From NCBI GenBank assembly GCA_021372315.1, contig JAJFUT010000073.1, positions 29,677 to 93,676 of the forward strand: a DNA stretch of 64,000 bases, written 5' to 3'. Source of the stretch: Methanobacteriota archaeon (GTDB taxonomy: Archaea > Thermoplasmatota > Thermoplasmata > Methanomassiliicoccales > UBA472). Position 1 is the first letter of the stretch; each line of letters begins with the position of its first letter. The notes under the pieces are model-generated. The model did no database searches. It was not told where the DNA came from and saw only the letters and a list, made by a program, of their open reading frames with translations. Both the position numbers and the translations under genes were made by a program. Shown one piece after another: positions 19,035 to 56,424 of the stretch.

Positions 19035-20534
19035 TCACTCGCCCCTCTTTCCAGTGAGCAACGACACGCCGATCATCGCCGCGAACCCCAGGGGCACGCT
19101 GACTATGCCCGGGTTCGTCAGCGGGAAGAGCGGGTCGTCCATGTACGTAGGGCTGACGGCGATGAGCACCAGCGCGCTCACGAGGCCGACGGCTATCCCC
19201 GATACGATGCCCCTGTCCGTGGCCTTCTTCCAGAAAAGCACTCCGATCAGGGCGGGTATGTTCGCGGAGGCTGCGAGGGCGAATGCCAGGCCGACGAGGA
19301 AGGCGACGTTCTGCCCCTTCATCACCATGCCCAGGGCGATCGCCAGCAGTCCGACGCCAACGGCCGTTATCTTCGACACCCTCAGGGCGGACTTGTCCGA
19401 CTTCTTCTTCCCGAGTATCTCGGTGTAGATGTCGTGCGCGATGGCCCCGGCCGATGCCATGATCAGCCCAGACACCGTCCCCAATATCGTGGCGAACGCT
19501 ATCGACGATATGAGCGCGAAGAACAGCTCCCCGCCTATGAAGTTGGCCAGCGTCGGCGCCGCGAGGTTGGAGTCCGTGACGATGAACTTACCCTGCCCCG
19601 CGAAGTAGTTCGTGCCAAGTCCCAGATACAGCATGAGGACGTAGAACACCCCCATCAGTACGATGGCTACCACCGTCGACTTCCTCGCATCCGAGGGCTT
19701 CGGTACGGTGTAGTACCTGATCAGGACGTGCGGCAGCGCCGCCGTTCCGAGCAGCAGCGCCAGGCACAGCGAGGCGAAGTCCCACGGGTCATTGAACTTA
19801 AGACCGGGCGATAGGAACGCGTCGCCTGTATGCGCCAGTCCTCCAGTCGCCGGATTGGCCGCTCCATTGTCTAGGAAGTTCTGTATGAACTCGAGCGGGC
19901 CGAACCCGGAGACAACAAGGACACCGATCGTCAGCGCTATGACGGCGATGAACAGCAGGAGCGCCTTGATGAACTGCACCCAGGTCGTGCTGACCATGCC
20001 GGCCGTGGCCACGATCAATATCACGATGCCACCGACTATCAGCACCCCCCATTCATAGGGGAAGCCGAGCAGAGGCTGAATGATCGTCCCTGCGCCCACC
20101 ATCTGCGGGATCAGGTAGAATATGCTCACGACGAGCGTGCTTATCGCAGCTGCCAGCCTCACGGACTTGCTCTTGAACTTCGAGACGAGGGCGTCGGCGA
20201 AGGTGTACTTGCCCATGACCCTCAGCGGTTCGGCTATCAAGAACAGCGCGACGATCCATCCGGCCAGGAAACCTATGCCGTAGATGAACCCGTCGAAACC
20301 GCTGAACGCGATCATTCCGGCTATGCCAAGGAACGACGCCGCGCTGAGGTAATCACCAGCGAACGCCACGCCGTTGACGAACCACTTCACGCTGCCTCCC
20401 GCGGTGTAATAATGACCTGCGGTACGCACCCTTCTCGAGAAATATGTCGAGATCGCAAGCGTGACCATCACGATGATGACGAACAGCGTGAAGGCCAATG
20501 GCTTGAAATCGTTGGCTAATGCTTCTGCAACCAT
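19035..20534 (-). CDS. actP: Cation/acetate symporter (SSF family, ActP-like)
   Basis: AGHYYTAGGSVKWFVNGVAFAGDYLSAASFLGIAGMIAFSGFDGFIYGIGFLAGW is the ActP N-terminal signature. About 13 TM segments. Confidence 0.85.
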   Translation of the reverse strand: MVAEALANDFKPLAFTLFVIIVMVTLAISTYFSRRVRTAGHYYTAGGSVKWFVNGVAFAGDYLSAASFLGIAGMIAFSGFDGFIYGIGFLAGWIVALFLIAEPLRVMGKYTFADALVSKFKSKSVRLAAAISTLVVSIFYLIPQMVGAGTIIQPLLGFPYEWGVLIVGGIVILIVATAGMVSTTWVQFIKALLLFIAVIALTIGVLVVSGFGPLEFIQNFLDNGAANPATGGLAHTGDAFLSPGLKFNDPWDFASLCLALLLGTAALPHVLIRYYTVPKPSDARKSTVVAIVLMGVFYVLMLYLGLGTNYFAGQGKFIVTDSNLAAPTLANFIGGELFFALISSIAFATILGTVSGLIMASAGAIAHDIYTEILGKKKSDKSALRVSKITAVGVGLLAIALGMVMKGQNVAFLVGLAFALAASANIPALIGVLFWKKATDRGIVSGIAVGLVSALVLIAVSPTYMDDPLFPLTNPGIVSVPLGFAAMIGVSLLTGKRGE

Positions 20535-20537
20535 GCT

Positions 20538-21263
20538 TCAAGCCTCCTGGGCCTTCTCCATCTTGATGGCATACCAGTTGAACACGACGGCCATGACTAT
20601 CGCAAGTATGATCGCTGCGAATCCCAAGACCAGTCCGACGTTGAGACCAAGCAGCCTCTCGGACATGACGCCTCTTTCAAAGGCGCCGAGGATCATGAGC
20701 AAAGCGTAGAATGCCACATATACGGCGAACAGGACGAGCCCGACCTTGAACTGCTTCGTGGAGGTGATCGACTCCACCGTCTTCGGCTTCTTCTTGCCGT
20801 CGATCCTACGCGCGAGCATCAAAGCCTCCCTCCCCTGCTCCTTGGTGGGGTTGATCGTGAGGACCTCGCATTTTGCGTGCTTAGCGACGCTCTTCGCGAC
20901 ATCTCCAAGATACAGTCCCGCCAGTCCGGACGGTGCGGAGCTGCCCATGACGATGGTCTGGACGCCCATCGCATTGGAGACGTTGATGATCTCGCCGGAC
21001 ACAGGTCCTTCCCGAACGACCTCGTCGTAGGGAACGCCCTCCTGCTTGGCAAGCTCCCGTGCGAAGGCCATTCCATCGATGTCGGGGCATCTCTTCAGGG
21101 TGACGTTCCCTGCCTGCTGCTCTATCTCGGTCGATGGCGTGGACTCGATGACGGTGAGGATGATCAGTTTTGCCTTCCTCTCCTTCGCCATCTTGACCGC
21201 TTCGATCGTCGCGACGAGCGCTGGCAACGAGCTGTCCGTCGGCAGCAGAATTTTCTGCTCCAT
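20538..21263 (-). CDS. Universal stress protein (USP) domain fused to a DUF485 (YjcH-like) two-TM domain
   Basis: N-terminus has ILLPTDSSLPA...LIILTVIES...TIVMGSSAPSGLAGLYLGDVAKSVAKHAKCEVL (USP). C-terminus has FKVGLVLFAVYVAFYALLMILGAFERGVM...LNVGLVLGFAAIILAIVMAVVFNWYAIKME (DUF485 pattern). Ends 3 nt before actP. Confidence 0.75.
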   Translation of the reverse strand: MEQKILLPTDSSLPALVATIEAVKMAKERKAKLIILTVIESTPSTEIEQQAGNVTLKRCPDIDGMAFARELAKQEGVPYDEVVREGPVSGEIINVSNAMGVQTIVMGSSAPSGLAGLYLGDVAKSVAKHAKCEVLTINPTKEQGREALMLARRIDGKKKPKTVESITSTKQFKVGLVLFAVYVAFYALLMILGAFERGVMSERLLGLNVGLVLGFAAIILAIVMAVVFNWYAIKMEKAQEA

Positions 21264-34353: not shown

Positions 34354-35715
34354 TCATCTTCTGGCGTAGTTTGAGCAAGCGTCAACGAACGACGAGGCTA
34401 CACGTTCGTCCGTCCCGAAATGAAGATGGGTATAGGATGCCAGAACGTTCGGTGAGGCCATGCCGTCCAGGGAATCCGTGATCCCCTTGTCCTTGTCCAG
34501 GGAGTACGCGAAATCCTTTTCGCCGCATTCTGTGACGTGCGAATAATGGAAGACGTGCCCTCTCAGCGTCCTTCCCTTCTTGGTCAGGATGGTGTCCCTG
34601 AGCGCCGTCGCCTCGACATATCCGAGCGACTGCAGGCTCCCGGTCATCTCCACCTTGGCGTCGAAAAGCGAAGCCATGCCATGCTCCGCTCCCTGGAGGT
34701 CCTTCATCGATCTGCACATGTACATCAGTCCGCCGCATTCTGCGTAGACCGGCATGCCGTTCGAGGCCAGCGTTCTCAGCCTGCTCATCATTTCATGGTT
34801 CTCACCCAGACGTTCAGCGAACATCTCAGGATACCCGCCTCCGAAGTAGACACCGTCGACGTCGGGCATCGTGTCCTTCAGCGGTGATAACGGTACGATC
34901 TCGGCGCCGTTCGCCGTCAGCATGTCGAGGTTGTCCTGATAATAGAAATTGAACGCCGCGTCCTTGGCCAGACCTATCCTGCACCTCGGAGCCATGACCG
35001 GTCTGGACGCCTCCTCCTCACCGTTGAAAGGAACCGCTTGCCTGGCGATCTCGATGAGGCGATCGATGTCCAGATGTTCCTCCATCAGTTCAGCGATCCT
35101 TTCATAGCTCAACGAATTGTCCTCCTCGCCCGCCGGCACTAGACCGAGATGCCTGCTCTTCAGGCCAGCATCTTCGGCCAGGGGAAGCCCGCCGAGGCAT
35201 TCGATGCCTCTCAACGATGCCTCCAGCATGCTCAGGTGCCGCCTGCCGCCGACATTGTTGAAGATGACCCCTGCGATGTTCACGTCCGGGTCATAATCGA
35301 CGAAGCCCTTGGCGACGGCGCCGAGGCTTCGGGCCGACGCGGAGGCGTTGAGGATCAGGATCACCGGGCAATCCAGCACCTTCGACAGATGGGCGCTGCT
35401 GCCTTCCTCAGACAATCCGTCATACCCGTCATAGAAGCCCATTACGCCCTCGACGAGCGACAGATCGGCACCCTTGGAGTTCGAAACGAACGACCTCTTG
35501 ACGTGATCGGGGAACATCCAGGTGTCCAGGTTCCGCGATATCCTCGATGATACCGCATTATGATGCATGGGGTCCAGGAAGTCCGGACCCGTTTTGAACG
35601 GCTGTACGGCAAGGCCCCTGCCCCTGAAAGACGATATCAGACCGATCGTGACCGTCGATTTACCGACGCCGCTCCTCTCCCCGGCGATCATCACCCTGGG
35701 CCTGATGAACTCCAT
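34354..35715 (-). CDS. cbiA: Cobyrinate / Ni-sirohydrochlorin a,c-diamide synthase (CbiA/CfbB family)
   Basis: VMIAGERSGVGKSTVTIGL...QPFKTGPDFLDP, plus a C-terminal GATase domain with AECGGLMY. Confidence 0.85.
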   Translation of the reverse strand: MEFIRPRVMIAGERSGVGKSTVTIGLISSFRGRGLAVQPFKTGPDFLDPMHHNAVSSRISRNLDTWMFPDHVKRSFVSNSKGADLSLVEGVMGFYDGYDGLSEEGSSAHLSKVLDCPVILILNASASARSLGAVAKGFVDYDPDVNIAGVIFNNVGGRRHLSMLEASLRGIECLGGLPLAEDAGLKSRHLGLVPAGEEDNSLSYERIAELMEEHLDIDRLIEIARQAVPFNGEEEASRPVMAPRCRIGLAKDAAFNFYYQDNLDMLTANGAEIVPLSPLKDTMPDVDGVYFGGGYPEMFAERLGENHEMMSRLRTLASNGMPVYAECGGLMYMCRSMKDLQGAEHGMASLFDAKVEMTGSLQSLGYVEATALRDTILTKKGRTLRGHVFHYSHVTECGEKDFAYSLDKDKGITDSLDGMASPNVLASYTHLHFGTDERVASSFVDACSNYARR

Positions 35716-36020
35716 ACGCTTATTCCTCCGACCCTGTCATCACATCGGAAAAACCGATCGTCAGGATCGCAAGGTCCATCGACGAATGAAAAGAACACGA
35801 TACTATCTGGCGATAATCGTCGCTCATCTCGATCCCAACGAGTTGGAGATATTATCCAACTCCATACAAATAGGTATTGCATATGGGTCGGACCATACGA
35901 TCGGGTCATCTGAGAACGCGCCCTTTCATATGTTACTCATACCTGAGACGGCGATCATGGGGAGATATCATCTTTCGAAAGCCTTGGGATCATCGGCAGT
36001 TCGTACGAGGTGGATCCGGC

Positions 36021-37202
36021 ATGAAGAACGTTCGTTCAGGCGCACTGCACTTCGAAGCGAAGAGATACCTTCCAGATGGCGTGTCAATGCCATCGTGGTC
36101 GTTCGAACCGTATCCAAATTACATCCAGGCAGGCAGGGGACCTTATGTCACCGACGTCGACGGAAACGATCTCATAGACTATCGGATGGGCTCGGGAGCG
36201 CTCATCCTAGGCCATGCAAGGCGGGAGGTCACGGAAGCGGTGAAGCAGCAGCTGGAACTTGGTGCGGTGTTCGACGCGCCCACGGAGAAGGAGCTGAAGA
36301 TGGCCAAGCTCATTGGCAGGTCCTTTCCGTCCATGGAGATGATGAGGTTCTGCGGGTCTGAGGCCGAGGCAAAGGTCCGCGGGGTCCGCGTCGCTCAAAG
36401 CTACACGGGGAGGAAGAAGGTCATGTCCATAGGAGGTGCTCTCCCGTCCGATATGTCCAGCACAGTACCTGTGCCGTTCAACGACCTCGACACGGCCGAC
36501 GATCTGATGAGGCAGGACGAGGGGGGTTTCGCGGCCGTGGCGCTCGAGCCTCTCGCCACGATCAACGGCCTCTCGCTCCCGGCCGAGGGTTATCTGCAAG
36601 GGATAAGGGACATTGCAACGGACCACGGGGCGTTGCTCATGTTCGACGAGACGACCACGGGGTTCCGTCTGGCCAAGGGCGGGGCCCAGCAGTTCTATCG
36701 CGTTGTCCCTGACATCACAGTGCTCGGAAGGACGGCTGGAGGAGGTCTTCCGTTCGGCGCGTTCGGAGCATCGAGGGAGGTCATGACGACCCGTCACGCC
36801 GGTAGGAGGTCATGCGACGCGTTCGCTGGGAACCCTCTTAGCTTAGCTGCCGGGATCGAGACGCTCAGGATCATCGGGAAGGAAGGACACGACGACACGA
36901 ACGCAAGGGGCGAGGAGCTCAGGAAAGGTATCGAGAGCGTCATCAACGAGCTGCATCTCGGTTTCCATTTCGTCGGAGAGGGGTCGATGTTCCAGCTGTT
37001 CTTGGCAAACCGTTCATTTTCTGCTGAAATCGACGCAGGGAACTGTGATCTGGACAGGTATGCAGAGCTTTCATCGATGCTGATGAACAAGGGGGTCTGC
37101 CTGACCTCATCGCAGTTCGGGACCAACTTCCTTTCGACATCCCATGATCGGTCCGTCATCGAAAGGACGGTGGATATCTTCACCGAGGCCTTGCTCGGTT
37201 AG
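36021..37202 (+). CDS. Glutamate-1-semialdehyde aminomutase (HemL)-like protein lacking the PLP lysine
   Basis: Collinear with HemL (YVTDVDGNDLIDY, FDAPTEKELKMAKL, LMFDETTTGFR, AGNPLSLAAG). Reads LGRTAGGGLP where HemL has LGKIIGGG, and lacks the GCYHGH...PxSxGVP segment. GGTGGAT SD before the ATG at 36021. Confidence 0.7.
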   Translation: MKNVRSGALHFEAKRYLPDGVSMPSWSFEPYPNYIQAGRGPYVTDVDGNDLIDYRMGSGALILGHARREVTEAVKQQLELGAVFDAPTEKELKMAKLIGRSFPSMEMMRFCGSEAEAKVRGVRVAQSYTGRKKVMSIGGALPSDMSSTVPVPFNDLDTADDLMRQDEGGFAAVALEPLATINGLSLPAEGYLQGIRDIATDHGALLMFDETTTGFRLAKGGAQQFYRVVPDITVLGRTAGGGLPFGAFGASREVMTTRHAGRRSCDAFAGNPLSLAAGIETLRIIGKEGHDDTNARGEELRKGIESVINELHLGFHFVGEGSMFQLFLANRSFSAEIDAGNCDLDRYAELSSMLMNKGVCLTSSQFGTNFLSTSHDRSVIERTVDIFTEALLG

Positions 37203-37362
37203 CATGACGATATCCATCTAGCTAGGGGGGAGGGCAAGATCGTTCGTCCTCGTTGCTATGAGAAGCACAAAAAGGAAGGACTTGACGCGCATATCGGTAT
37301 CATAACGAAGGGCCCAGAGGATTTTCTCGGAACGCCTCCGGAGTCGCCCTAGGTGATCGGTC

Positions 37363-38166
37363 ATGACCAAACTAGCGATCATGAGAATGAAGGACAATAT
37401 GACGGAATCCGTCGACCAGGCGAGGGGGATGGGATTCGACGTCATGTTCGCGTCGCCGCTCGAGCTATCGGAGATGGACACCCCAGACTTCTGGAGGTTC
37501 GTCGACGACCTGGAGGCGGACAGGGCCGGCAGGGTCCTGCTGACGAGCGCCACAGCGGTCAGGTACATGTTCGAGCTGCTCGAGAAGAAAGGGAGAGCCT
37601 CCTCCGCCTTCTCTAAGCTCAACAAACGCGGGATCATAGCGGTCGGGCCGCTCACGGCCGAGGCGGCGAAGGCCAAATGGCTAAAATCGGAGACCGTCCC
37701 TGAAAGGTTCACGTCCGATCAGCTCGCCTCGTTCCTGAAGAGCAAGGTCGCAAAGGGCGAGACGGTCTGGGTCGTCCGCTCCGACCAGGGTTCGGAGGTC
37801 GTTAGAAAGGGGCTCGAGTCCTTAGGGGCCAAGGTCGAAGAGGTACCGGTCTACACCTTGAAGAAATCCGATCAGGACAGGGCCCTGCTGGATATGTATT
37901 ACTTCACCGTGAACGGAGGCATCGACGCCTATATCTTCACGAGCCCGCTTTCCGCCAAGGCGTTCATCGAGGAGGGCGAGAAGAAGTACGGGGTAAGGGA
38001 GTTCGGAACTGCTCTCAACGATTCGATCATCGCAGCCATGGGCGAGCCTACGAAGAAGATGCTCGAGAGCATGGGCGTCGACGTGGACGTGATCTCCGGG
38101 AGCCCGAGGTTCGAGGACACGCTGAAGGCAGTGAAGCTGTACATCGAGAAAGGCACCGGACGCTGA
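37363..38166 (+). CDS. hemD: Uroporphyrinogen-III synthase
   Basis: Two-lobed HemD pattern: VLLTSATAVRYMFELL...IIAVGPLTAEAAKA...AYIFTSPLSAKAFIE...IIAAMGEPTKKMLE. Confidence 0.75.
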   Translation: MTKLAIMRMKDNMTESVDQARGMGFDVMFASPLELSEMDTPDFWRFVDDLEADRAGRVLLTSATAVRYMFELLEKKGRASSAFSKLNKRGIIAVGPLTAEAAKAKWLKSETVPERFTSDQLASFLKSKVAKGETVWVVRSDQGSEVVRKGLESLGAKVEEVPVYTLKKSDQDRALLDMYYFTVNGGIDAYIFTSPLSAKAFIEEGEKKYGVREFGTALNDSIIAAMGEPTKKMLESMGVDVDVISGSPRFEDTLKAVKLYIEKGTGR

Positions 38167-38973
38167 TCATCTCTTCAGAAGGAGTTCCAGCGATTCCTGC
38201 ACTGACATAGGAGGGCGGAACTCCTTTCCGGTCGCGTCGCGCCATTTCATCATCAGCCTGGAGAACGACGGCAGCTCTAGGCTCGCCTCCTTCAGCACTG
38301 CCTCGTCCTCGACCAGCCCGCGGAAGTCGCCGTCGTATATGACCTTCTTCTTCAGCACGATGACGCGCTGCGCAAGCTCGAAAGCGACGCTAAGGTCGTG
38401 CGTCGCCAGGACGAAACCCTGAGGGATCGATCGCAAAATGTTCACCAGGTCCCTCCTTCCCTGCGGGTCGAGGTTCGCCGTAGGCTCGTCCAGGAGCAGG
38501 GTCGGCGGGGACATTGCCAGGACGCCTGCGATCGCCACCCTCTTCTTCTCGCCGATCGACAACCTGTGAGGCACCCTGTCCCCGAAGTCGGAGATCCCAG
38601 CGAGCTCCATCGCCTTCCTGACCCTCTCCCTCACATCATCCTCGGTCAGGCCCATGTTGATCGGCCCGAACGCGACGTCCTCCCATACCGTAGGCATGAA
38701 TATCTGGTCATCAGGGTCCTGGAACAGAAGGCCGACCTTCCTCCTGACGTTCACGGCGTCCTTCTTCGTCAGCTCGGTCCCGCCTATCGTCACCTTGCCC
38801 TTGGTAGGGATGCTAAGCCCGGACATCAGGTGCAGCAGCGTGCTCTTCCCGGCCCCATTGGGACCAACGAGCGCGACATGCTCGCCTTCCTTGAGCGCGA
38901 TGCCCACGTCCTCGAGGGCATAGGGGCTCTCCAGATACCTGAACCAGACCCCCTCCAGTCGCATCACGTCCAA
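38167..38973 (-). CDS. cbiO: ECF transporter ATPase (CbiO/NikO type)
   Basis: VALVGPNGAGKSTL, LSIGEKKRVAIAGVLA, LLLDEPTANLD. Overlaps cbiQ by 10 nt. Confidence 0.9.
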   Translation of the reverse strand: MDVMRLEGVWFRYLESPYALEDVGIALKEGEHVALVGPNGAGKSTLLHLMSGLSIPTKGKVTIGGTELTKKDAVNVRRKVGLLFQDPDDQIFMPTVWEDVAFGPINMGLTEDDVRERVRKAMELAGISDFGDRVPHRLSIGEKKRVAIAGVLAMSPPTLLLDEPTANLDPQGRRDLVNILRSIPQGFVLATHDLSVAFELAQRVIVLKKKVIYDGDFRGLVEDEAVLKEASLELPSFSRLMMKWRDATGKEFRPPMSVQESLELLLKR

Positions 38974-39701
38974 TGTACCGCCTCCAGTTGCATAGATATC
39001 AGCAGGCAGCTGAAACCGATGAAGAGGAACGCGAACCCGGCATCCCTCGCCCTGACCCGAAGCTCGTCGATCGTCCTCATGTCGCCGGTGTAACCTCGTG
39101 ATAGCAGGGCGTCATAGATCTTCGTCGCCCTGACGTTCGAACGGACAAGGACCATGCCGATCGTGTACGATATCGTCTTGAACGCGCCTAGGTCGAGCAG
39201 GTTCCGACCTCCGGTGAAGCCCCTTGCCTTTCGGGCCAGCCTCATTCGTGACATCTCGTCGATGAGGAGGAAGATGAAACGGTACGTGAACAACAGAAGG
39301 TTGCAGACGATCTCCGGGACCTTGTACCATCTCAGAGCCTTTAGGGTACTGAAGAAGGGCGTCGTCGACACCATGAGCAATAACGCGAGGACGGATGCGG
39401 AGATCCTGAAGCATATCGCGACAGCGTTCTCAAGGCTTGACGTGAGGAACATCGTGATGAACGCGAAGAGTATGAACGGAAAGGCGAGGATGAAGTTACT
39501 GACCATATGTCTCATCGGAACGCCCGACGCTTCGACCAGGACCATCGTGAAGACGAGCGCGAGGTACAGGGCGGTCAGGTCCCTCAGCATCGCCACGACG
39601 CATATGAAGAAGATGGTGCAGGCCAGCTTGACCCTCGGGTCGAAACGGAAGAACCGCGAACCCTTGGCGAAACGGTCCACCTCATCATGTTCGAAACCCA
39701 T
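38964..39701 (-). CDS. cbiQ: ECF transporter transmembrane (T) component CbiQ
   Basis: FRFDPRVKL..., and MRLARKARGF, which I read as the CbiQ/EcfT coupling-helix region. Five to six TM segments. Confidence 0.85.
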   Translation of the reverse strand: MGFEHDEVDRFAKGSRFFRFDPRVKLACTIFFICVVAMLRDLTALYLALVFTMVLVEASGVPMRHMVSNFILAFPFILFAFITMFLTSSLENAVAICFRISASVLALLLMVSTTPFFSTLKALRWYKVPEIVCNLLLFTYRFIFLLIDEMSRMRLARKARGFTGGRNLLDLGAFKTISYTIGMVLVRSNVRATKIYDALLSRGYTGDMRTIDELRVRARDAGFAFLFIGFSCLLISMQLEAVHWT

Positions 39702-39712
39702 CCAGGACCTCC

Positions 39713-40009
39713 TTAGTTCGTCTTCTTGTTCTTCCTGCTCCGGAGCACTAGGATGTATCCGGTCATGACGACCATGACGATGAGGAATCCGAGTATTCCC
39801 ATCAGCAGGCTCGAGGAGTAGTTCTCCCCGTAATCGAACGGAGCCTCCCAGACTGGCTCGCCCTCGCTGACGCCATTGTCCTCCATCGTCCTCTCTAGGC
39901 CGTCCCCGTACATCGCCGAGAACGCGTAGAATCCCACGAGGCCGATGGCGAAGACGATGACGAGTGCGATGACCGCCTTCAGGTATTTCCTCTCGATCAG
40001 AGCATCACC
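39713..40009 (-). CDS. PDGLE-domain small membrane protein (takes the CbiN position); start codon unresolved
   Basis: TM - YGDGLERTMEDNG... - TM architecture with the GDGLE motif. No ATG/GTG/TTG lies in frame between the cbiM stop and the first TM helix. The long track ORF 39713..40387 is an artefactual extension through cbiM. Confidence 0.6.
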   Translation of the reverse strand, partial: GDALIERKYLKAVIALVIVFAIGLVGFYAFSAMYGDGLERTMEDNGVSEGEPVWEAPFDYGENYSSSLLMGILGFLIVMVVMTGYILVLRSRKNKKTN

Positions 40010-40668
40010 TCGGGTTTCGGTTCGGCCTTCCCGAGCTGCATCGTGAGCATCTCCGGCGCGATCTTCGCGAGGAAGCTTATCACGCCCATCGTGATCAGCC
40101 CTTCGCCGACGCCGATGACCGCGTGCCATCCGAGCATCGTCGGTATCGCGACGATGCCATTGATGCCGTACGCTCCGTTGGATAGCGTGAAGCTGAGGGC
40201 GAGCGCCATTGCGCATGCCGATGCCGCTAGAACTATCGCGAACCACGATGCCGCGAAGGAGGTGGCGGAACGGGCCTTCCCGTTGGCCAATCTGATGATG
40301 ACGGCTGAAGCGAATGGAGCGACGACCGCCATGTTCAGAAGGTTCAGCCCCAGTGCGGTGATCCCGCCATCTCCGAAGACCAGGCATTGGATTACAAGGA
40401 TGACGGTCATCACAACTATCGAGCCGTATACCCCTAGCAACATGACGGCGAGTGTGGCTCCGACCAGATGCCCCGTGGTGCCTCCCCCGACGGGGAAATT
40501 GAGCATCTGGGCAACGAAGATGCCCGCGGCAAGAATGGCCATGAACGGCACCTTACTCTCATCCACGGTCCTGTTGACCTTCGATACCGCAAAAGCTATG
40601 ACTGGAAGGGCTATCGCCCATCCCGCGAACAAGATCATCGGGTCCATCAGGCCATCCGGTATGTGCAT
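39997..40668 (-). CDS. cbiM: Cobalt/nickel ECF substrate-capture component CbiM/NikM
   Basis: N-terminal MHIPDG (metal-ligating MH) followed by FPVGGGTTGHLVG. Confidence 0.9.
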   Translation of the reverse strand: MHIPDGLMDPMILFAGWAIALPVIAFAVSKVNRTVDESKVPFMAILAAGIFVAQMLNFPVGGGTTGHLVGATLAVMLLGVYGSIVVMTVILVIQCLVFGDGGITALGLNLLNMAVVAPFASAVIIRLANGKARSATSFAASWFAIVLAASACAMALALSFTLSNGAYGINGIVAIPTMLGWHAVIGVGEGLITMGVISFLAKIAPEMLTMQLGKAEPKPEVML

Positions 40669-48775: not shown

Positions 48776-48831
48776 TTGTCCAATAGGTCAGGTTAATGAA
48801 CCTTGCTACCCATACGGGTATCGCTAGTTTC

Positions 48832-50697
48832 ATGACAGTGAGCGATTGGAGGAAGAGGTACAAGTCGAAGGTCTGCTCGCCCCAGGATGCGGTGCAGCAC
48901 ATCAGGCGAGGGGATACCATCTTCATCGCGACGGCATGCGGCGAGCCGCAGGCGCTCGTCAAGGCCATGGTCGCAGAGGCCGAGTCCCTTGCGGACAACG
49001 AGGTGATCCAGACCTTATCCATAGGTCCCAACACGTTCGCAGAGGAGAGGTTCGCGAGCCAGTTCCGTCTCAACGCTCTTTTCATAGGCCCGGGCACGAG
49101 GGAGGCCGTCAACCAGGGCAGGGCCGATTACACTCCGATATATCTTTCCGAGATCGAAAGGCTGTTCGAAACGGCCACCATCACCATCGAGGTGGCGTTG
49201 ATCCAGGTGTCACCACCGGACGAGGACGGCAACTGCTCGCTAGGCGTCAGCGTCGACATCACCAAGAGCGCCGCGGAGCACGCGGACATCGTCCTGGCGC
49301 AGGTGAACGAGAACATGCCTCGGACAAAGGGCGACTCGTTCATCCACGTCAACGAGATAGACCATCTGGTCGATCTGACGGAGCCTCTGCTCGAATGGGT
49401 ACCGGAAAGGGAGGAGGACCCGGAAGTATTGGCGCGCATAGGCAGGCATCTCTCCGAGCTCGTCCAGGACGGTTCGACGATCCAGATAGGTTACGGGACG
49501 ACGCCCGACGCGGTCCTCAAGCATCTGGGCAGCAGGAAGGACCTGGGCGTCCACACCGAAGTGTTCTCCGACGGGCTGATGGAGCTGGCGAAGGTCGGCG
49601 TCGTCACCGGTAGCAGAAAGACCGTGCATCCAGGAAAGATGATAGCCTCGTTCGTGATGGGGACGAAGGAGCTGTACGCCTGGGTTAACAACAACGACGC
49701 CATCGAGATGCATCCGTCATCCTACACGAACGATCCTTTCGTCATAGCGAAGAACGACGACATGGTGTCGATAAACACCGCCCTGTCGATCGACCTGACG
49801 GGGCAGGTCTGCGCCGATCAGATCGGCCACCGGTTCTTCTCAGGGCTCGGAGGTCAGGTGGATTTCATGCGCGGGGCCGCCCGCGCCAGGAACGGCAAAC
49901 CCATAATCGTGATGCCCTCGACCGCCAGGGATGGCATGGTATCGAGGATCGTTCCGCATCTGGAGGAGGGTGATAGCGTCACCACACCGCGCGGGGACGT
50001 GCACTACGTCGTCACCGAGTACGGCGTGGCCGAGCTCCACGGGAAGAGCATCATGCAGCGCACCCTCGCCCTGATCGAGATCGCGCACCCGAAGTTCAGG
50101 GACGAGCTGTTGGCGCACGCCAAATCGTTGCATCTCATATTCGCCGACCAGGCGGGGACCTCGATCAAGTCCATCTATCCAGAGCAGTACGAGATGGTCG
50201 CCCGGCTCAAGGACCTGGACGTCTATATAAGGCCGGCCAAGGCATCGGACGAGACCCTGCTGAGGGAGCTATTCTATTCGTTCAGCGACACGACGGTGTA
50301 CTCTCGATACATGGCGCCCCGCAAGTCCTTCTCGCACACGGAGCTGTCGAGCATCGTCGACATCGATTACGTCGAGCGCATGACGATGATCGCGCTGATC
50401 AAGGAGAGGGGGACATGGAAGGCCGTAGGCGTCTCGACGTTCGACATGGACCGTCCGTCGAACACGGCCGAGGTGTCGTTCATCGTCGCGGACAGGATGC
50501 AGGGGAAGGGCATCGGGACGAGGCTCATGGAACAGATGATAAAGGCCGGGAGGGACCGTTCGATCAAGGCGTTCACGGCCGAGACGCTCGCGGAGAACGT
50601 CAAGATGCTGGATATATTCTATAGGACGGGGTACAAGGTCGAGACGAAGCTCATCGAGGACACGTACATCGTCAAGATGGACCTGTGGCAGAAGTGA
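48832..50697 (+). CDS. Acetyl-CoA hydrolase/transferase-family domain fused to a Pat-type GNAT acetyltransferase domain
   Basis: N-terminal about 430 aa: SPQDAVQHIRRGDTIF, EVFSDGLMEL, FSGLGGQVDFMRGA, VVTEYGVAELHGKS (CoA-transferase family). C-terminal: YIRPAKASDETLLRELFYSFSDTTVYSRYM...VDIDYVERMTMIAL...AEVSFIVADRMQGKGIGTRLM (GNAT of the Pat/AcuA type). The ORF opens at 48796; the start is probably MTVSDW at 48832. Confidence 0.85.
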   Translation: MTVSDWRKRYKSKVCSPQDAVQHIRRGDTIFIATACGEPQALVKAMVAEAESLADNEVIQTLSIGPNTFAEERFASQFRLNALFIGPGTREAVNQGRADYTPIYLSEIERLFETATITIEVALIQVSPPDEDGNCSLGVSVDITKSAAEHADIVLAQVNENMPRTKGDSFIHVNEIDHLVDLTEPLLEWVPEREEDPEVLARIGRHLSELVQDGSTIQIGYGTTPDAVLKHLGSRKDLGVHTEVFSDGLMELAKVGVVTGSRKTVHPGKMIASFVMGTKELYAWVNNNDAIEMHPSSYTNDPFVIAKNDDMVSINTALSIDLTGQVCADQIGHRFFSGLGGQVDFMRGAARARNGKPIIVMPSTARDGMVSRIVPHLEEGDSVTTPRGDVHYVVTEYGVAELHGKSIMQRTLALIEIAHPKFRDELLAHAKSLHLIFADQAGTSIKSIYPEQYEMVARLKDLDVYIRPAKASDETLLRELFYSFSDTTVYSRYMAPRKSFSHTELSSIVDIDYVERMTMIALIKERGTWKAVGVSTFDMDRPSNTAEVSFIVADRMQGKGIGTRLMEQMIKAGRDRSIKAFTAETLAENVKMLDIFYRTGYKVETKLIEDTYIVKMDLWQK

Positions 50698-51402: not shown

Positions 51403-53082
51403 CTACATCATGAGGACGTTCAGGACGAGGTCCACGATGTAGCCGGACACGGCGCCGACCCAGATCAGCAGGACGAAGTGCACGCCTGTCGTGGCGATGC
51501 TTCCGCCCTTCACGATAGGGATCATGATCGCCGAGAAGAATGCATGGATGATGATTATGGAGAAGACCATGATGTTCAGCAGGTCGACGTTGTACGACGC
51601 GTTGAATATGCTGTCCAAGAACCCCCCTGTCGGAATACCGGACGTGTCGACGTTCAGGTTCGTGACCACGTTGTTCATGTACTCGATGATTCCGATCGTG
51701 ATCCAAAGCGTGAATGCCAGCGAGACCATTATACCATAGAACACGCCGTAGAAACCTGAGCTTATCGACAGCCTCTTCTTCCTTATCGTCAGGACCTTGA
51801 AGAGGTTGTTGCTGATGAACGAGCTCGTCTCCTCCGGCTTTGATCCGGAGAGGACGCATTCCATGTAGATGCTGCTGAACCTCTTGATGAGGTTGCTGCT
51901 CGACTCGGCAGCGAAGTGCTCCCAGGACTTCCGGGGGTCGATGTACATGTTCAGCCTCTTCGACAGGTTCTCGACCATGCTCGTGAGCGGCCCGAACTTG
52001 TGCACGGCCAGGTTCTTCACCGCACCGGGCATCGTCTGCCCGCTGACGGACGACGAACGCCCGAGGGACCTGATGAACGCGCCGAATATCTCATCCCTCT
52101 TCTCGATCCTCTTCTCCTCCCTCATCATCAGTATGCCGGGGATGAGGACTGGCATGAATATCGAAGCGGCCATGAGCATAGGCGGGAGGTCGAAGTCCTT
52201 CAGCGTGATGAACAAGAGGAAAATACCGGCTATGGCCACGAACAGCGACAATATCAGGATGCGGTCCTTGTCGGATACGAGCCTCCCCTTTATCTTCTGC
52301 CTGAAGGGGTACCAGATGTCCTCCTTCGGGACCTTCGACAATATGAGGACGACGAAAAGGGCCTCCATGATGACGAACCCCACCACGACGCCAATCATGA
52401 GCTCGTCGACCATAGTCTGGCTCAGCAACGGTATGATGGCCACGAAGACGCAGATGAAGATGAGCGCGGTGACCGCGCCGGTGTATATCTCCTTCAGGAA
52501 ATCGACGTCCTTGAGCGAGGACTCGCATCGAAGGACGTACTCGTCCATCAGCACGTCGTGCTCGTTGTTCATGAAACGGTCGAGCGGCTCGCCCACGTCG
52601 ATGGCGTGGCTCAGTCTCGAGAAGAAGTCGTTCTCGAGCTTGCTCGGCGATTGCGAGGCGACGAAGGCGCATCCGACCGACACGGAGACGTTGTATAGCT
52701 TCATGAGCCGGTAGATCTTCTCGGAGTCCTTGGACAGTGGTCCGTACTCCTTCTTCTGGGACAGGATGTGGAATATCCTCTCGAAGCCCATGTCCGAAGT
52801 GGCCAGGGCTGCGAGCTCGGTGATGTACGAAGGCATGGTCCTGTCGATCTTGATCCTCCTCTGCGACGCCGAGACATAAGGCCATATGACGACGACCATG
52901 ACAAGGAAGTAGAATGACGCGAAGACGGCGAACAGGCTCGTCACTTCCATATATGGCCCGATGGAAAACCATGTGAGCGCCGGGAACGCGATCCCGAAGA
53001 TGCCGATCGTCAGTCCGAGAAGGGTGAGATACTTCTTCCGGTCCATCTCCATCGTGCTGAGGGCGAGCCGATACTTCATCAT
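51403..53082 (-). CDS. flaJ: Archaellum polytopic membrane platform protein FlaJ/ArlJ
   Basis: 559-aa membrane protein with two TadC/GspF-like halves, immediately downstream of flaI. Confidence 0.9.
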   Translation of the reverse strand: MMKYRLALSTMEMDRKKYLTLLGLTIGIFGIAFPALTWFSIGPYMEVTSLFAVFASFYFLVMVVVIWPYVSASQRRIKIDRTMPSYITELAALATSDMGFERIFHILSQKKEYGPLSKDSEKIYRLMKLYNVSVSVGCAFVASQSPSKLENDFFSRLSHAIDVGEPLDRFMNNEHDVLMDEYVLRCESSLKDVDFLKEIYTGAVTALIFICVFVAIIPLLSQTMVDELMIGVVVGFVIMEALFVVLILSKVPKEDIWYPFRQKIKGRLVSDKDRILILSLFVAIAGIFLLFITLKDFDLPPMLMAASIFMPVLIPGILMMREEKRIEKRDEIFGAFIRSLGRSSSVSGQTMPGAVKNLAVHKFGPLTSMVENLSKRLNMYIDPRKSWEHFAAESSSNLIKRFSSIYMECVLSGSKPEETSSFISNNLFKVLTIRKKRLSISSGFYGVFYGIMVSLAFTLWITIGIIEYMNNVVTNLNVDTSGIPTGGFLDSIFNASYNVDLLNIMVFSIIIIHAFFSAIMIPIVKGGSIATTGVHFVLLIWVGAVSGYIVDLVLNVLMM

Positions 53083-53091
53083 CTTCTTCCC

Positions 53092-54768
53092 TCAGTAGCT
53101 GAAGGGCAGCGAGGACGGCCCCTTCTCGTAATAATCGTTGAAGACCTTGACGACGTCGCGGTATGACGTGATGTCCAGCTCGACCATCCTCTCTATGATC
53201 CTCTGCCTAGTCCTCAGGTCGTTGTAGATGTCCTTCTTCTCAGCGTATCCGTGCTCGACGGCGATCTTGTTCTCGAGGATATGCGAGTTGTTCAGCCCGC
53301 GGAATATGTGCTTGTCCTTGTTGGCGTCCCACTTGAAGACGACCCGGGTCAGGATGCCACCCTGGTCCCTGTTGTAGCCGACGAACTCCTCCACGTGGGT
53401 TACCCGCCTGAGGACGAGGCCGTTGACGTTCACGGCCGACTGGAATATGATGACGTTGACGTTGTCTATGAAAGAAAGAGGGATGTTGACAGGCTGCCCG
53501 GTCATCCTCTGGATGAACTTCGTCGAGGTGGACGCGTGGAACGTCGCAATGACCGGGATGCCTGTCTGCATGCACTGAAACGCGACACGCGCCTCCTCTC
53601 CACGGATCTCGCCTATGACGATATAATCGGGCCTCGAACGCAGGGCAGCCCTGAGCAGGTCGAACATCGTGACCCTCGCCTCCTCCGGTCCAGATTCCCT
53701 CGTGACGCAGCGCTGCCACGAACGCTGGGGCGGCTTGACCTCCGGTGTGTCCTCCACGGAGTATATCTTGCCCCTGTGGTCGACGAAGGTGAGAACGCCG
53801 TTGAGCGTGGACGTCTTACCGGAGGCGGTCTCCCCGCAGATCATGATGTTGACCTTGTTCTCAAGGCATAGCCAAAGATAGGCTCCCAGTTCCGGGGAGA
53901 ACGTCCCCCACTTGATCAGCTGGATCGGCGATATCGGCTCGGCCGAGAACTTACGGATCGTGAACGAGCTTCCCCTGGCGGAGATCTCGTTCGAATAGAT
54001 CATGTTGATACGGGAGCCGTCGGGCAATATCCCGTCGACGATCGGCTTGGAAGCGGACACGGGCCTGCCCATCCTCTCCGACATCGAGACGAAGAACTCG
54101 TTCAGGGAGGCGTCATCGTCGAACTTGATGTTCGTCTCGAGAGCGTACTGGAACGCCTTGTGCGATACCCTCACGCTCGTCGTTCCGACGAGGTGTATGT
54201 CCTCGATGTACTGGTCGAGGATGAGGGGCTGTATCGTCCCGAACCCAATGATGTCCCTGTTGACGAAGTACCTGAAGAGCTCGTACTCGTCCTTCGCGAC
54301 CGTAACCTTGTCCCCTGCTCCGATGAGCCGGGCCATGGGGGATTTCCTGAGGAAGTTCTCGTCATCGTCGGGGTTTCCCACCTTGACGATGCGGTCGAAT
54401 AGCTTGTTGAGCAGGCGCTCCTTCTCCTCGTAGGACTCCTTGGCGTCGACGTTGGACGCGCGGCTCAATATGCCCCACTTGATGGCCTGGAGCTTGATCT
54501 TCTCGACCTGCGTGAGCTTCTTTTCGATGCTGTTGTACTTATTGATCTTCGCGTCGATGTGGATGAAGCCCGAGCCGGCCGTGTAGATGAAATTGCAGGA
54601 GTCCGGGTCTCTCGCGGCCTCCTTCCTGATTACCGCCAGCTCCTTGATCGTGAGGTTCTTATAGAACTTCGGGAGCGTGGTCGTGCCCTTCGAGAGCTCC
54701 TCTAGGTACTGTCTGAGGACCGGGTTCGTCTCGGCCTGCTTGAGGAGCTCGTCTTCCATTTCCCGCAC
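53092..54768 (-). CDS. flaI: Archaellum assembly/motor ATPase FlaI/ArlI
   Basis: Type II/IV secretion NTPase motifs: ICGETASGKTSTLN (Walker A), IVIGEIRGEEA (Walker B region), His box ATFHAS. Confidence 0.95.
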   Translation of the reverse strand: MREMEDELLKQAETNPVLRQYLEELSKGTTTLPKFYKNLTIKELAVIRKEAARDPDSCNFIYTAGSGFIHIDAKINKYNSIEKKLTQVEKIKLQAIKWGILSRASNVDAKESYEEKERLLNKLFDRIVKVGNPDDDENFLRKSPMARLIGAGDKVTVAKDEYELFRYFVNRDIIGFGTIQPLILDQYIEDIHLVGTTSVRVSHKAFQYALETNIKFDDDASLNEFFVSMSERMGRPVSASKPIVDGILPDGSRINMIYSNEISARGSSFTIRKFSAEPISPIQLIKWGTFSPELGAYLWLCLENKVNIMICGETASGKTSTLNGVLTFVDHRGKIYSVEDTPEVKPPQRSWQRCVTRESGPEEARVTMFDLLRAALRSRPDYIVIGEIRGEEARVAFQCMQTGIPVIATFHASTSTKFIQRMTGQPVNIPLSFIDNVNVIIFQSAVNVNGLVLRRVTHVEEFVGYNRDQGGILTRVVFKWDANKDKHIFRGLNNSHILENKIAVEHGYAEKKDIYNDLRTRQRIIERMVELDITSYRDVVKVFNDYYEKGPSSLPFSY

Positions 54769-54809
54769 CTTCTCCTGCCTGCTTTGTTGCCTTGATCCCT
54801 ATCTCACGC

Positions 54810-55523
54810 TCATCCCGATAGGTCGGTGATCTCGATGACCATGCCCGACTTCGGTTCTATCCTGTACTTCATCTGGTCCTCGACCTGTCCCCTCGCTCGG
54901 AGGAAGCGTTTGACATGTATCTCCCTGGAGACCCCTCCCTTCGTGTTCATGACGAGGTCGAGGTAGACATCGGCCGACAGCCTGAGCGGGTCCAGGTTGG
55001 GTAGCCCGGCCTCCGACGTCAGCACGACGGTCTTGTCCATCCTCGTCAGCTTCTTCAGGAACCCCATGAGCGAGTTCGCGTGCTCGTAGTCCATGTTCTT
55101 GTTGAGCAACGATGAGAACGAATCGACGATGAGCACGTCCCTGACGAAGAGCTGGGGGGAGTTGACGAGCTTGACGAGGAAATCGTCCCGCGTCCTGGTC
55201 TGGCCAAGGAGCGGGTAGACCGGCACGTAGAGCAGCTTGTCGCTGAGCAGGTGCGGACCGATCTGGTAATTGATGGAGTACATCTGGTCGATGAAGTCCT
55301 TGAACGTCATCTCGGTCGACACGTACGTCACGCTGACGCCGTTGCTCAGGAAGCCGTAGCATAAACGCTGGCTCAGTATGCTCCTTCCGGAGCCTTCGGG
55401 GCCTTCGATGAAGACGACGGACCCTTTCGGTATCCCCTTTCCCAGCCTGACGTCCAGCTCGTCGGTCTTAAGGCCGAACCTGTAGACCCCGTCATCCCCA
55501 TTGCCCTTCTGGTCCTGTACCAT
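54810..55523 (-). CDS. flaH: Archaellum KaiC-like protein FlaH/ArlH (P-loop reads GPEGSGRS)
   Basis: LDVRLGKGIPKGSVVFIEGPEGSGRSILSQRL, sitting in the flaG-flaH-flaI position. Confidence 0.85.
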   Translation of the reverse strand: MVQDQKGNGDDGVYRFGLKTDELDVRLGKGIPKGSVVFIEGPEGSGRSILSQRLCYGFLSNGVSVTYVSTEMTFKDFIDQMYSINYQIGPHLLSDKLLYVPVYPLLGQTRTRDDFLVKLVNSPQLFVRDVLIVDSFSSLLNKNMDYEHANSLMGFLKKLTRMDKTVVLTSEAGLPNLDPLRLSADVYLDLVMNTKGGVSREIHVKRFLRARGQVEDQMKYRIEPKSGMVIEITDLSG

Positions 55524-55547
55524 CTTCCCATCGTCCTTTCTAAATCC

Positions 55548-55991
55548 TCAGACCCGGAACAGGAACGTGTCCGATCTGCCGCTGCCAGTTATGACCTTGA
55601 TCGTGTGGTCCCCTTCGTCGATGTCTGCGCCGACCGTGAGCACCAGTATGGTCGATGGACCCCATTCTTTCGAGCTGGAGCCGTCCAGGCGGGCCGCCGT
55701 CTCATTATTGTAGACCCCGTCGAGCATGACCATGACGTCGTAGGTGCCCATCACCGATGTCCCGATGTTCTCGACGTAGATCGTCAGTTCGCCATCGGAG
55801 TACGGCATCATCGTCGGGTCGTTGATGATCACGATGTCCGTGGCTATGCTATCTCCGAGCGCATCGGCCTGGTCCTCGATCTTCTCCCCCATCTGGAACC
55901 CGACGCCGATGATGACGCCGGCCAGCGAGGCCGCGACCACAATCGCCGCAATGAAGAAGACCGTCTGCGATATCGCGGCATCGGATGCCAT
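55548..55991 (-). CDS. flaG: Archaellum stator-associated protein FlaG/ArlG
   Basis: MASDAAISQTVFFIAAIVVAASLAGVI is an archaellin-like N-terminal helix. The ATG overlaps the flaF stop (TGATG). Confidence 0.8.
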   Translation of the reverse strand: MASDAAISQTVFFIAAIVVAASLAGVIIGVGFQMGEKIEDQADALGDSIATDIVIINDPTMMPYSDGELTIYVENIGTSVMGTYDVMVMLDGVYNNETAARLDGSSSKEWGPSTILVLTVGADIDEGDHTIKVITGSGRSDTFLFRV

Positions 55992-56422
55992 CAGATCGCC
56001 TCGGCCTGAACATGGTCGGACGCCCAACCGTAGGCCGTCACCTTGACCCTTGCGTTCTCGATCTCACCGGGCAATTCTATGATGATCGATTCGCCCGGCG
56101 CCCAGATGTTGCTTCCAGGATGTCCTTCCACTGTTATCCGTAGCATGGTCCAGTTGCACAGCGTGCCGTTGACGAGCACATCAACGTCCTGTAACGTTAT
56201 CGTCTCCCCCCCATCGTTCCTTACGAGCAAGGAGTCGTTAAGACCGTCGACCGAAACGATGGAGATGGACGTTCCCCTGATCTCCTCGTTCCTGGCGACG
56301 CTCTCGTCCTGCGCGTCCGCGACCTTTTCTTCGAGATCGGTCATGGCCCCGAAAACGATGCTGAACGTTATGACGGCGGCCGTGAACAATATGGCCGTCG
56401 CCGCGGAGACGCTGAGGCCCAT
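55991..56422 (-). CDS. flaF: Archaellum stator-associated protein FlaF/ArlF
   Basis: MGLSVSAATAILFTAAVITFSIVFG N-terminal helix followed by a beta-sandwich-like remainder. Operon position fits. Confidence 0.8.
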   Translation of the reverse strand: MGLSVSAATAILFTAAVITFSIVFGAMTDLEEKVADAQDESVARNEEIRGTSISIVSVDGLNDSLLVRNDGGETITLQDVDVLVNGTLCNWTMLRITVEGHPGSNIWAPGESIIIELPGEIENARVKVTAYGWASDHVQAEAI

Positions 56423-56424
56423 CC

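Follow-up and report, generated by a model that had tools for sequence, protein, structure and literature searches.

We analyzed a gene, here called hemL*, in a 64,000-nucleotide stretch of the archaeal contig JAJFUT010000073.1 (hereafter the window, to which all positions refer unless another locus is named). It codes for a protein of 393 amino acids (aa) that derives from glutamate-1-semialdehyde 2,1-aminomutase (GSAM, the HemL protein). hemL* is the orthologue of the hemL gene of a hem operon, lying at the same position and in the same orientation between the hem promoter and hemD. It is probably a dead yet selected copy, that is, the gene of a pseudoenzyme that was stranded when other genes of the operon disappeared: the catalytic residues have been lost, the predicted fold is kept and purifying selection acts on the coding sequence.

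Fold and active-site residues of the hemL* product

The hemL* reading frame is unbroken over 393 codons, and its ATG at position 36021 aligns with the start codons of the homologues. The product (P0001) is identical to the NCBI entry MCE5296636.1 from a metagenome-assembled genome (MAG) labeled 'Euryarchaeota archaeon', where it is annotated as 'aminotransferase class III-fold PLP-dependent enzyme' (PLP, pyridoxal 5′-phosphate). The Pfam family PF00202 (Aminotran_3) was matched with 128.5 bits at a gathering score of 30.5. The HemL models were the top NCBIfam models, but the equivalog TIGR00713 gave only 310.6 bits, which is 217 below its cut-off of 527.3. With the same model the canonical neighbors P0003, P0012 and P0005 scored 567, 539 and 527.5, respectively, and other degenerate copies 313, 288 and 251.

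The whole product aligned with GSAM proteins of known structure (PDB 3bs8, E = 4e-70; also Synechococcus GSAM, 3fq8 and 2gsa), confirming the collinearity with HemL that an earlier note on this DNA had read from the sequence. All top matches among solved structures were glutamate-1-semialdehyde aminomutases, and each alignment fell into two segments, between which about 30 residues of the crystal-structure sequence were left unmatched. Identity amounted to 31–35% with the crystallized GSAMs and to 50–55% with the nearest archaeal HemLs. Structure prediction, as the earlier note had proposed, yielded an AlphaFold2 model (72-sequence alignment) with a mean predicted local distance difference test (pLDDT) value of 90.3 and a predicted template-modeling score of 0.89. 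Values below 50 were restricted to residues 261–266, which correspond to the replaced phosphate-fixing loop. A Foldseek comparison with the PDB gave template-modeling (TM) scores of 0.92–0.95 and root-mean-square deviations of 1.8–2.7 Å to GSAM chains, the best target-normalized scores belonging to chains with fewer modeled residues (393–402 of about 427–432). The hemL* product is thus predicted to keep the GSAM fold.

GSAM residues are numbered as in the Synechococcus enzyme, whose functional residues have been described (PMC7338781); an alignment with chain 3fq8_A served to check this numbering. In every alignment Arg237 of the hemL* product takes the place of the Schiff-base lysine, Lys273, and no alternative lysine was found within about 18 residues on either side of it. 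The proposed realignment with HemL proteins therefore places no lysine at the PLP site. The cofactor motif SGTEA is altered as well. A third lesion concerns the gating loop, which comprises Cys149–Thr183 in GSAM (PMC7338781). Compared to the archaeal HemLs 26 residues are deleted, from Tyr150 to about Gly175, in good accordance with the 25–30 residues estimated before; compared to Synechococcus GSAM, query residues 140 to 143 span chain residues 143 to 173, a difference of about 27 residues. Beyond these three lesions, all of which the earlier note had recognized, the alignments revealed Ser29Met, Arg32Trp, Asn217Ile, the exchange of YQAGT for RSCDA and Glu406Gly. Asn217 presumably forms a hydrogen bond to O3′ of the cofactor, and Ser29, Arg32 and Glu406 bind the substrate. 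The only functional element listed in Table 1 that is kept is Asp245.

The extent of divergence was also measured over the 157 alignment columns in which conservation among 103 canonical HemLs reaches 90% or more. The hemL* product was off consensus at 58 of them, while the canonical HemLs deviated at a median of 2 and a maximum of 27. Compared to known GSAM/HemL proteins (Synechococcus 2GSA/2HOY, B. subtilis 3BS8, TIGR00713), the product is therefore alike in collinearity, predicted fold, Asp245 and the hemL slot of the operon, and unlike in that the gating loop, the Schiff-base lysine, the phosphate ligands, Asn217 and the substrate-binding residues are gone. With nearly all catalytic and cofactor-binding residues replaced or deleted, it would not be expected to convert glutamate-1-semialdehyde to 5-aminolevulinate. 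The assessment as a HemL-derived protein that is no normal aminomutase thus appears justified, and judged from its residues the product ought not to be classified among the HemL enzymes.

Table 1. Features of hemL*, its product and the surrounding locus in the window.
Feature	Position	Strand	Basis or remark
hemL* (393 aa, GSAM-derived, apparently catalytically dismantled)	36021..37202	+	Pfam, NCBIfam, alignments, AlphaFold2, Foldseek, dN/dS
Shine-Dalgarno-like site GAGGTGGA	36007..36014	+	upstream of the hemL* start; read from the sequence, conserved in L001
Trp26 for substrate-carboxylate-binding Arg32	36096..36098	+	SSPVRAF to SMPSWSF; role from PMC7338781
SEAEA for SGTEA (residues 113–117; Gly123Glu, Thr124Ala)	36357..36371	+	cofactor-binding start of the interface helix (PMC7338781)
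Deletion junction Ala140/Leu141; 26 gating-loop residues including Tyr150–His153 gone	36438..36443	+	alignments
Ile181 for Asn217	36561..36563	+	EPV.GN.G to EPLATING; 28 residues before the conserved Asp
Asp209, equivalent of Asp245 (pyridine-nitrogen ligand), kept	36645..36647	+	FDE conserved
Arg237 (AGG) for Schiff-base Lys273; next residue Ile to Thr	36729..36731	+	LGRTAGGG aligned to LGK(I/V)IGGG
RSCDA for YQAGT (Tyr301–Thr305; holds the phosphate of the cofactor in the partner subunit, PMC7338781)	36807..36821	+	alignments
Gly367 for Glu406	37119..37121	+	SQFE to SQFG; role from PMC7338781
cbiA/cfbB-like a,c-diamide synthase gene, divergent from hemL*	34354..35715	-	Pfam CbiA and GATase_3
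Palindrome TTGGAGATATTATCCAA (TTGGA-N7-TCCAA)	35843..35859	+	single occurrence in the window; 0.01 expected by chance
hemL*-hemD spacer	37203..37362	+	37263–37328 resemble the last ~22 hemC codons
hemD (uroporphyrinogen-III synthase), apparently intact	37363..38166	+	Pfam HEM4, 127 bits
cbiO - cbiQ - small membrane protein - cbiM (energy-coupling-factor-type Co/Ni transporter), then trpABFCD	38167..40668	-	Pfam

Closest relative and selection on hemL*

A search of 5.8 billion clustered proteins turned up a single further protein with the same deletion. This protein, P0002, is 82% identical to the hemL* product and is encoded at locus L001 of the metagenome JGI 3300037067. The next matches were ordinary Methanomassiliicoccales HemLs of 421–426 aa. 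Two metagenome scans gave no further close relative, and they did not recover L001 either; a scan of genome contigs with a HemL alignment yielded, among the matches listed, only distant HemLs with 30–40% identity. P0002 and the hemL* product have the deletion junction, the SEAEA motif, the Trp, Ile and Gly replacements and 29 further substitutions at conserved columns in common. P0002 keeps the lysine (LGKIAGGG; codons AAG ATA for Lys Ile at the Lys273 position) as well as the equivalent of Thr305. Because the closest relative retains the lysine, its loss was a late, strain-level event that does not define the variant.

These findings change the picture of a conserved clade with a Lys-to-Arg exchange linked to cbiA/cfbB, which had been considered before: two members are known, and one of them has the lysine. 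A dead HemL left in an eroded hem operon fits the data better than a dedicated Lys-less clade for corrinoid or F430 synthesis. Nor is hemL* a decaying pseudogene unique to one strain, since deletion and gene order recur in L001 and the frame is open in both sequences.

Comparison of hemL* between the window and L001 gave 0.100 non-synonymous (dN) and 0.415 synonymous (dS) substitutions per site and a dN/dS ratio of 0.24 (chi-square p = 3e-20). In 60-codon windows the ratio ranged from 0.12 to 0.36 for residues 1–240 and from 0.29 to 0.44 in the C-terminal third, staying below 0.45 throughout. In neutral simulations the frame remained open in 1.3% of the runs at the divergence between window and L001, and in none of 5000 at the divergence between the window and canonical hemL. 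The region 5′ of the gene is 88% identical between window and L001, which exceeds the conservation of synonymous sites, and the Shine-Dalgarno-like site is kept. Intact reading frames were found in the window, in L001 and in the degenerate hemL genes of two further loci, L089 and L090, described below, so that hemL* does not qualify as a pseudogene by the usual criteria. Judged by the dN/dS ratio of 0.24, the intact reading frame and the GSAM-like predicted fold, hemL* is not a free-running pseudogene, and the inference of the earlier note that the gene is intact was correct. hemL* has been under protein-level constraint after the dismantling of the active site. Since their split both sequences have gone on losing residues that are invariant in canonical HemLs (14 losses in the window, 10 in L001, with K237R, T267A, P244Q and S364M among them), as would be expected for released active-site positions.

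The hem operon and its erosion

In the Methanomassiliicoccales relatives L002, L003 (CP058896.1), L006 and L007 the canonical operon has the order sirC-hemA-hemB-hemL-hemC-cobA-hemD. It is flanked by the gene of a divergent cbiA/cfbB-like amidase on the left and by cbiO-cbiQ-(small protein)-cbiM and trpABFCD on the right. The flanks in the window match the canonical ones with 52–83% protein identity, and only hemL* and hemD lie between them. Using tblastn, no sirC, hemA, hemB, hemC, cobA or corrin-ring cbi gene was detected in the 64-kb window. HemD of the window is 69–72% identical to HemD of the canonical relatives, and the cbiO-cbiM flank is collinear with and 68–81% identical to that of L003 and L007. 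Among 11 genes syntenic with L003, hemL* is the least conserved (48% compared to 52–81%; HemD 69%, CbiO and TrpB 81%). This operon context, a hemL slot of sirC-...-hemD eroded by internal deletions, was absent from the earlier note.

The palindrome upstream of hemL* recurs at related loci. As TTGGAGRTATYATCCAA, with the arrangement TTGGA-N7-TCCAA and a TATA-like center, it is present in L001 (45–62), L089 (97–114) and L007 (7004–7021). It sits 5′ of the degenerate hemL in the window, L001 and L089, and immediately 5′ of the sirC start codon in L007; L002 and L003 are devoid of it. The palindrome probably stems from the ancestral hem operon, whose promoter/operator it would represent, likely as a repressor operator overlapping the promoter. 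A scan of the whole window against Rfam at gathering thresholds gave no match, and thus no riboswitch in the cbiA-hemL* spacer.

On the other side of the gene, the hemL*-hemD spacer resembles the end of hemC. Local alignment of the spacer with the HemC C-terminus reached a score of 45, which was attained by one of 500 shuffled sequences. Positions 37248–37362 are about 94% identical to L001, exceeding the conservation of synonymous sites in the flanking genes (proportion of synonymous differences, pS, about 0.30–0.32). Folding of this segment gave no RNA-structure signal (z = +1.3), and its reading frame is not conserved, a stop codon being read through in L001. The conservation might reflect an internal promoter or a leader of hemD. 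The shared flanks, the palindrome, the hemC-like remnant and the low conservation of hemL* together demonstrate that the gene is a positional orthologue left by in situ deletions and no inserted paralogue.

Reduced operons were also found at other loci. L004 and L005, the latter on a 1.4-Mb contig (ENA ERZ25039527 contig_6549), show the order cbiA, hemL-hemD and cbiO. Their HemL is full length and keeps the lysine, with Arg32 replaced by His or Gln and 15 of the 157 conserved columns off consensus. A non-coding remnant of hemB, corresponding to its last 16–22 or so codons, lies about 50–70 nucleotides 5′ of hemL (L005 9948–9995; tblastn E ~4e-5 to 1e-4), so that the deletion boundary differs from that of the window. 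Between L004 and L005 dN/dS was 0.29 for hemL and 0.24 for hemD, as compared to 0.06–0.09 for cbiA and trpB. In L004 (ENA contig_80211) trpA is in two pieces, cbiQ codes for 119 aa and a trpG-like glutamine amidotransferase gene is split, pointing to assembly frameshifts or real gene decay in this genome; its hemL frame is full length.

Two further loci carry loop-less forms. L089 has the order hemL-hemD-cbiO-cbiQ and codes for a HemL of 398 aa. In this protein the loop deletion lies at a different place, the lysine is again replaced by arginine (LGRTIGGG) and 65 columns are off consensus. At 42–52% identity it still keeps about 100 family-conserved positions. L090 (1001–3955, JGI 3300064049) contains a loop-less, Lys-retaining HemL gene that is overlapped by hemC (4 nucleotides) and followed by hemD, NikR and cbiOQM. 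Its HemC is 39–43% identical to canonical HemC and its HemD 41–52% to other HemDs, while CbiO reaches 64–70%. L090 represents an intermediate stage of erosion, and its HemC and HemD may be degenerating, too.

Neighbor-joining trees of HemD, CbiO and CbiQ grouped L005 with the canonical L006 (100%), joined by L089 (94.5%), and placed the window with the canonical L002, L003 and L007. As the eroded loci fall among different canonical relatives, the erosions were separate events, and the loci also bear different deletion remnants. P0001 and P0038, from independent lineages, deviate together at 43 conserved columns (about 24 expected), with the same new residue at 4, different residues at 28 and shared gaps at 11. 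A neighbor-joining tree of HemL itself united the degenerate copies (99.5%). A common origin was rejected since the HemD/CbiO/CbiQ trees disagree; in addition, each degenerate copy is nearer to canonical HemLs than to the others, and the replacement residues are not shared. Long-branch attraction is the best explanation for the grouping. Independent erosion of the operon has thus occurred in at least two other lineages, each of which kept a degenerating hemL together with hemD.

The tetrapyrrole and Ni/Co transporter setting that had been described for the gene was recovered, including hemD, the divergent cbiA/cfbB-like gene, cbiO, cbiQ and cbiM. Two labels were not confirmed. The amidase passed the NCBIfam cut-off for CobB (499.6 at 261) and missed that for CfbB (477.7 at 560), a pattern that was seen in all four loci tested. 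A Pfam scan of the 73-aa piece designated 'PDGLE' gave no match; its translation contains a GDGLE motif. The amidase is 71% identical to the product of the same-position gene in L007. The L007 orthologue adjoins cfbC/cfbD-like, CbiX and Mur-ligase-like genes and the L005 orthologue a Mur-ligase-like gene, and a CfbB role of the neighboring amidase in the F430 pathway is plausible but not established. Beside the cbiA/cfbB-like gene, L005 (6937–8235) and L007 (1782–3077) code for a protein of 431–432 aa (49% identical) that is absent from the window; it may be CfbE (F430 synthetase), to judge from a weak Mur_ligase_M match only.

Possible role of hemL* and comparison with other proteins

From these data we propose the following course of events. 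Deletions of sirC-hemA-hemB and hemC-cobA would have left the operator/promoter, hemL and hemD. The stranding of hemL would have relaxed the constraint on the aminomutase active site, and the gating loop would then have been excised. Residues contacting the cofactor phosphate (Gly123, Thr124, Tyr301–Thr305), presumably its O3′ (Asn217), and the substrate (Ser29, Arg32, Glu406) would have been replaced, followed at strain level by the exchange of the Schiff-base lysine for arginine. About 100 of the 157 family-conserved positions, the frame and the predicted fold would have been retained under selection. The outcome would be a scaffold of GSAM shape, probably a dimer, whose cleft is open and poor in cofactor. 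It may be co-expressed with hemD from the old hem promoter and might act by binding a protein partner or a ligand of the tetrapyrrole pathway rather than by catalysis. hemL mutants of enteric bacteria are leaky, and glutamate-1-semialdehyde slowly rearranges unaided; of all catalytic steps in the pathway, that of hemL may therefore be the easiest to do without.

Several observations weigh against a selected, stranded pseudoenzyme. The exact variant is present in two sequences only, which differ at the lysine. As to partners or ligands, only the adjacency to hemD and to the cfbB/cbiA-like gene offers a hint. With a dN/dS of 0.078 for hemD in the comparison with L001, the constraint on hemL* is about threefold weaker, and it is weakest in the C-terminal third (0.35–0.44), so that hemL* could be on a slow path to loss. 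The strong constraint on hemD implies that uroporphyrinogen III is probably still made, which requires a supply of hydroxymethylbilane, a compound too unstable for salvage. hemA, hemB, hemC and possibly a real hemL may lie outside the window, and 'stranded' would then apply to the locus only. Three protein searches revealed no HemA, HemB or second HemL of this MAG or of the L005 contig among the best 120 matches, which is a weak argument as one such list missed the HemA of L003 itself. Finally, Asp245 and the Gly-rich loop after the lysine position have been kept, as they have in other HemL-like proteins that lack the lysine, so that a cofactor of the pyridoxamine type might still be bound non-covalently to some extent.

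Alternatively, hemL* might be a functionless relic, protected by its location between the only promoter and the needed hemD. Mutations in hemL* of the nonsense, frameshift or destabilizing missense type would be purged through their effect on hemD expression or through toxic misfolding until the gene is eventually deleted. This would account for the relaxation of selection relative to hemD, which is more pronounced in the C-terminal domain, for the ongoing loss of invariant canonical residues in both members, for a clade as tiny as two members and for the low G+C content at third codon positions (0.73 compared to 0.82–0.83 in the neighbors). In contrast, clean internal deletions took out sirC-hemB and hemC-cobA in more than one lineage but left hemL in place, on three independent occasions or more. 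Moreover, dN/dS is well below 1 along the entire gene, and even L089 preserves the fold along with about 100 of the family-conserved positions. We regard a relic as unlikely, though as the most probable of the alternatives.

It seems improbable that hemL* codes for a regulatory or partner subunit, with the pathway and a canonical hemL located elsewhere, that heterodimerizes with HemL or docks on glutamyl-tRNA reductase. hemL* is the positional orthologue and no duplicate, and the protein searches mentioned above, weak as they are, did not turn up a second HemL, HemA or HemB. Such a function would nevertheless agree with the live route to hydroxymethylbilane implied by the dN/dS of hemD and with the dead HemL of L090, which is still translationally coupled to hemC by the 4-nucleotide overlap. 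It would also have precedents: the active sites of GSAM span the dimer interface and are built across it (PMC7338781), complexes of glutamyl-tRNA reductase with GSAM are known (see also PMC9614494), and a Lys-less fold-type-I homologue hetero-oligomerizes with its active paralogue in the Ser4/Ser5 system, according to PMC11726168.

A neofunctionalized enzyme is very doubtful. The open, loop-less cleft with its newly acquired charged residues (Trp26, Glu114, Arg237, Arg262/263, Asp266) would have to accommodate a larger substrate, e.g. a tetrapyrrole, in a reaction without covalent PLP or with non-covalently bound pyridoxamine 5′-phosphate. The replacements differ between independent lineages (28 different, 4 the same), and P0001 and P0002 differ at Lys, Thr305 and Pro244; this is the pattern of a relaxed site and not of a newly optimized active site. 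Every known phosphate ligand is gone, and nowhere is the AlphaFold2 model less confident than in the segment standing in for YQAGT. These points stand against the purifying selection on hemL*, the retention of Asp245 and the GGG loop, the recurrence of loop loss and Lys-to-Arg exchange in L089, and the adjacency to hemD and the cfbB/cbiA-like amidase. The Lys-to-Arg mutant of PctV, a member of the GSAM family, still crystallizes with pyridoxamine 5′-phosphate, according to the title of PDB 4zm4.

A sequencing or assembly artefact or a strain-specific pseudogene, suggested by the MAG origin and by the occurrence of the Lys-to-Arg exchange in this sequence only, can practically be dismissed, because the independent JGI contig L001 from another sample has the same deletion, 29 derived substitutions and the gene order, the adjacent Ile-to-Thr exchange accompanies Lys to Arg, and the frame is open in both sequences.

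A profile built from the three dead archaeal HemLs was compared with 1.84 billion representative sequences. About 15 separate clusters at 50% identity consist of Lys-less HemL-like proteins in which Arg, Ser, Pro, Ala, Glu, Asn or Gly occupies the lysine position, e.g. Ser in P0505, Pro in P0391 and Arg in P0408 (among them P0391, P0392, P0408, P0420, P0428, P0453, P0470, P0475, P0483, P0497, P0505, P0507 and P0383; loci L092–L096). Many have a short loop region, and all keep Asp245. They are thus like hemL* in belonging to the GSAM family, in the shortened gating-loop region, in the absence of the Schiff-base lysine and in the retention of Asp245. Unlike hemL*, they are mostly bacterial, and with 30–37% identity they are only distant relatives. 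The two loci that were read are bacterial and located outside hem clusters. The gene of P0505 adjoins those of a glucosaminidase and a histidine phosphatase, and a protein with a Por-secretion tail is encoded on the same contig. P0391 stems from a bacterial genome of 5.67 Mb and is encoded 4.4 kb from a second class III aminotransferase of 441 aa.

One could speculate that HemL-derived pseudoenzymes are a recurrent class, in which a GSAM scaffold devoid of loop and cofactor and HemD are kept behind a hem operator for the handling or salvage of tetrapyrrole intermediates; we consider this quite improbable. In such a scheme a carboxylate-rich macrocycle would be held in the opened dimer cleft for a cfbB/cbiA-type amidase and the Ni/Co transporter. 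The module would be kept when archaea abandon the de novo synthesis of 5-aminolevulinate and porphobilinogen, and the bacterial Lys-less proteins would be related solutions.

Literature searches yielded no description of dead HemL proteins or of the Lys-less HemL-like clusters, and nothing on CP058896. The hemL* product joins a known kind of protein, since pseudoenzymes occur in the PLP fold-type-I superfamily. A Lys-less aminotransferase homologue of this fold type is Ser4, which forms the Ser4/Ser5 hetero-oligomer of Serratia sp. ATCC 39006 (PMC11726168). Like the hemL* product, Ser4 is an aminotransferase-fold protein that lost the catalytic lysine yet was retained in a biosynthetic cluster. 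In contrast to Ser4, which according to the same paper is truncated at both ends and encoded next to its active paralogue, the hemL* product belongs to class III, is full length save for one loop and has no active partner nearby. Concerning the loss of hem genes in Methanomassiliicoccales, our literature search found nothing beyond the MAG of 'Ca. Methanomassiliicoccus armoricus', which lacks de novo cobalamin synthesis and has Btu importers (PMC7824343). This organism is of the same order and has also lost most genes of a tetrapyrrole pathway. The hemL* type of locus differs in that hemL and hemD are repeatedly kept and one of them has turned into a putative dead enzyme, a situation absent from PMC7824343.

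Automatic annotation labels the hemL* product and its relatives as 'glutamate-1-semialdehyde 2,1-aminomutase' or 'PLP-dependent enzyme', so that metabolic reconstructions of these archaea will credit them with the C5 step in error. Furthermore, the loci form a natural series leading from the intact operon via a stranded full-length copy with first active-site changes and a loop-less, Lys-containing form to a Lys-less one. The series is replicated in independent lineages and separates about 100 of 157 conserved positions that serve the fold from about 55 that serve catalysis. If the co-retention with hemD is functional, it points to a new tetrapyrrole-handling step in relatives of methyl-reducing methanogens; if not, it is an instructive case of the slow decay of an expressed operon-internal gene.

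No methanogenesis markers (mcr, mtr, cfbA/C/D/E) were found within the 64-kb window. Apart from the hem locus, the window harbors an archaellum cluster (FlaJ-, FlaI-, FlaH/KaiC- and FlaC-like), the gene of an AMP-forming acetyl-CoA synthetase, an SSF symporter gene adjoining a Usp-DUF485 fusion (ActP-like), and a fusion of acetyl-CoA hydrolase/transferase with a GNAT domain. These genes are located at 51403–57246, 60806–62782, 19035–21263 and 48796–50697.

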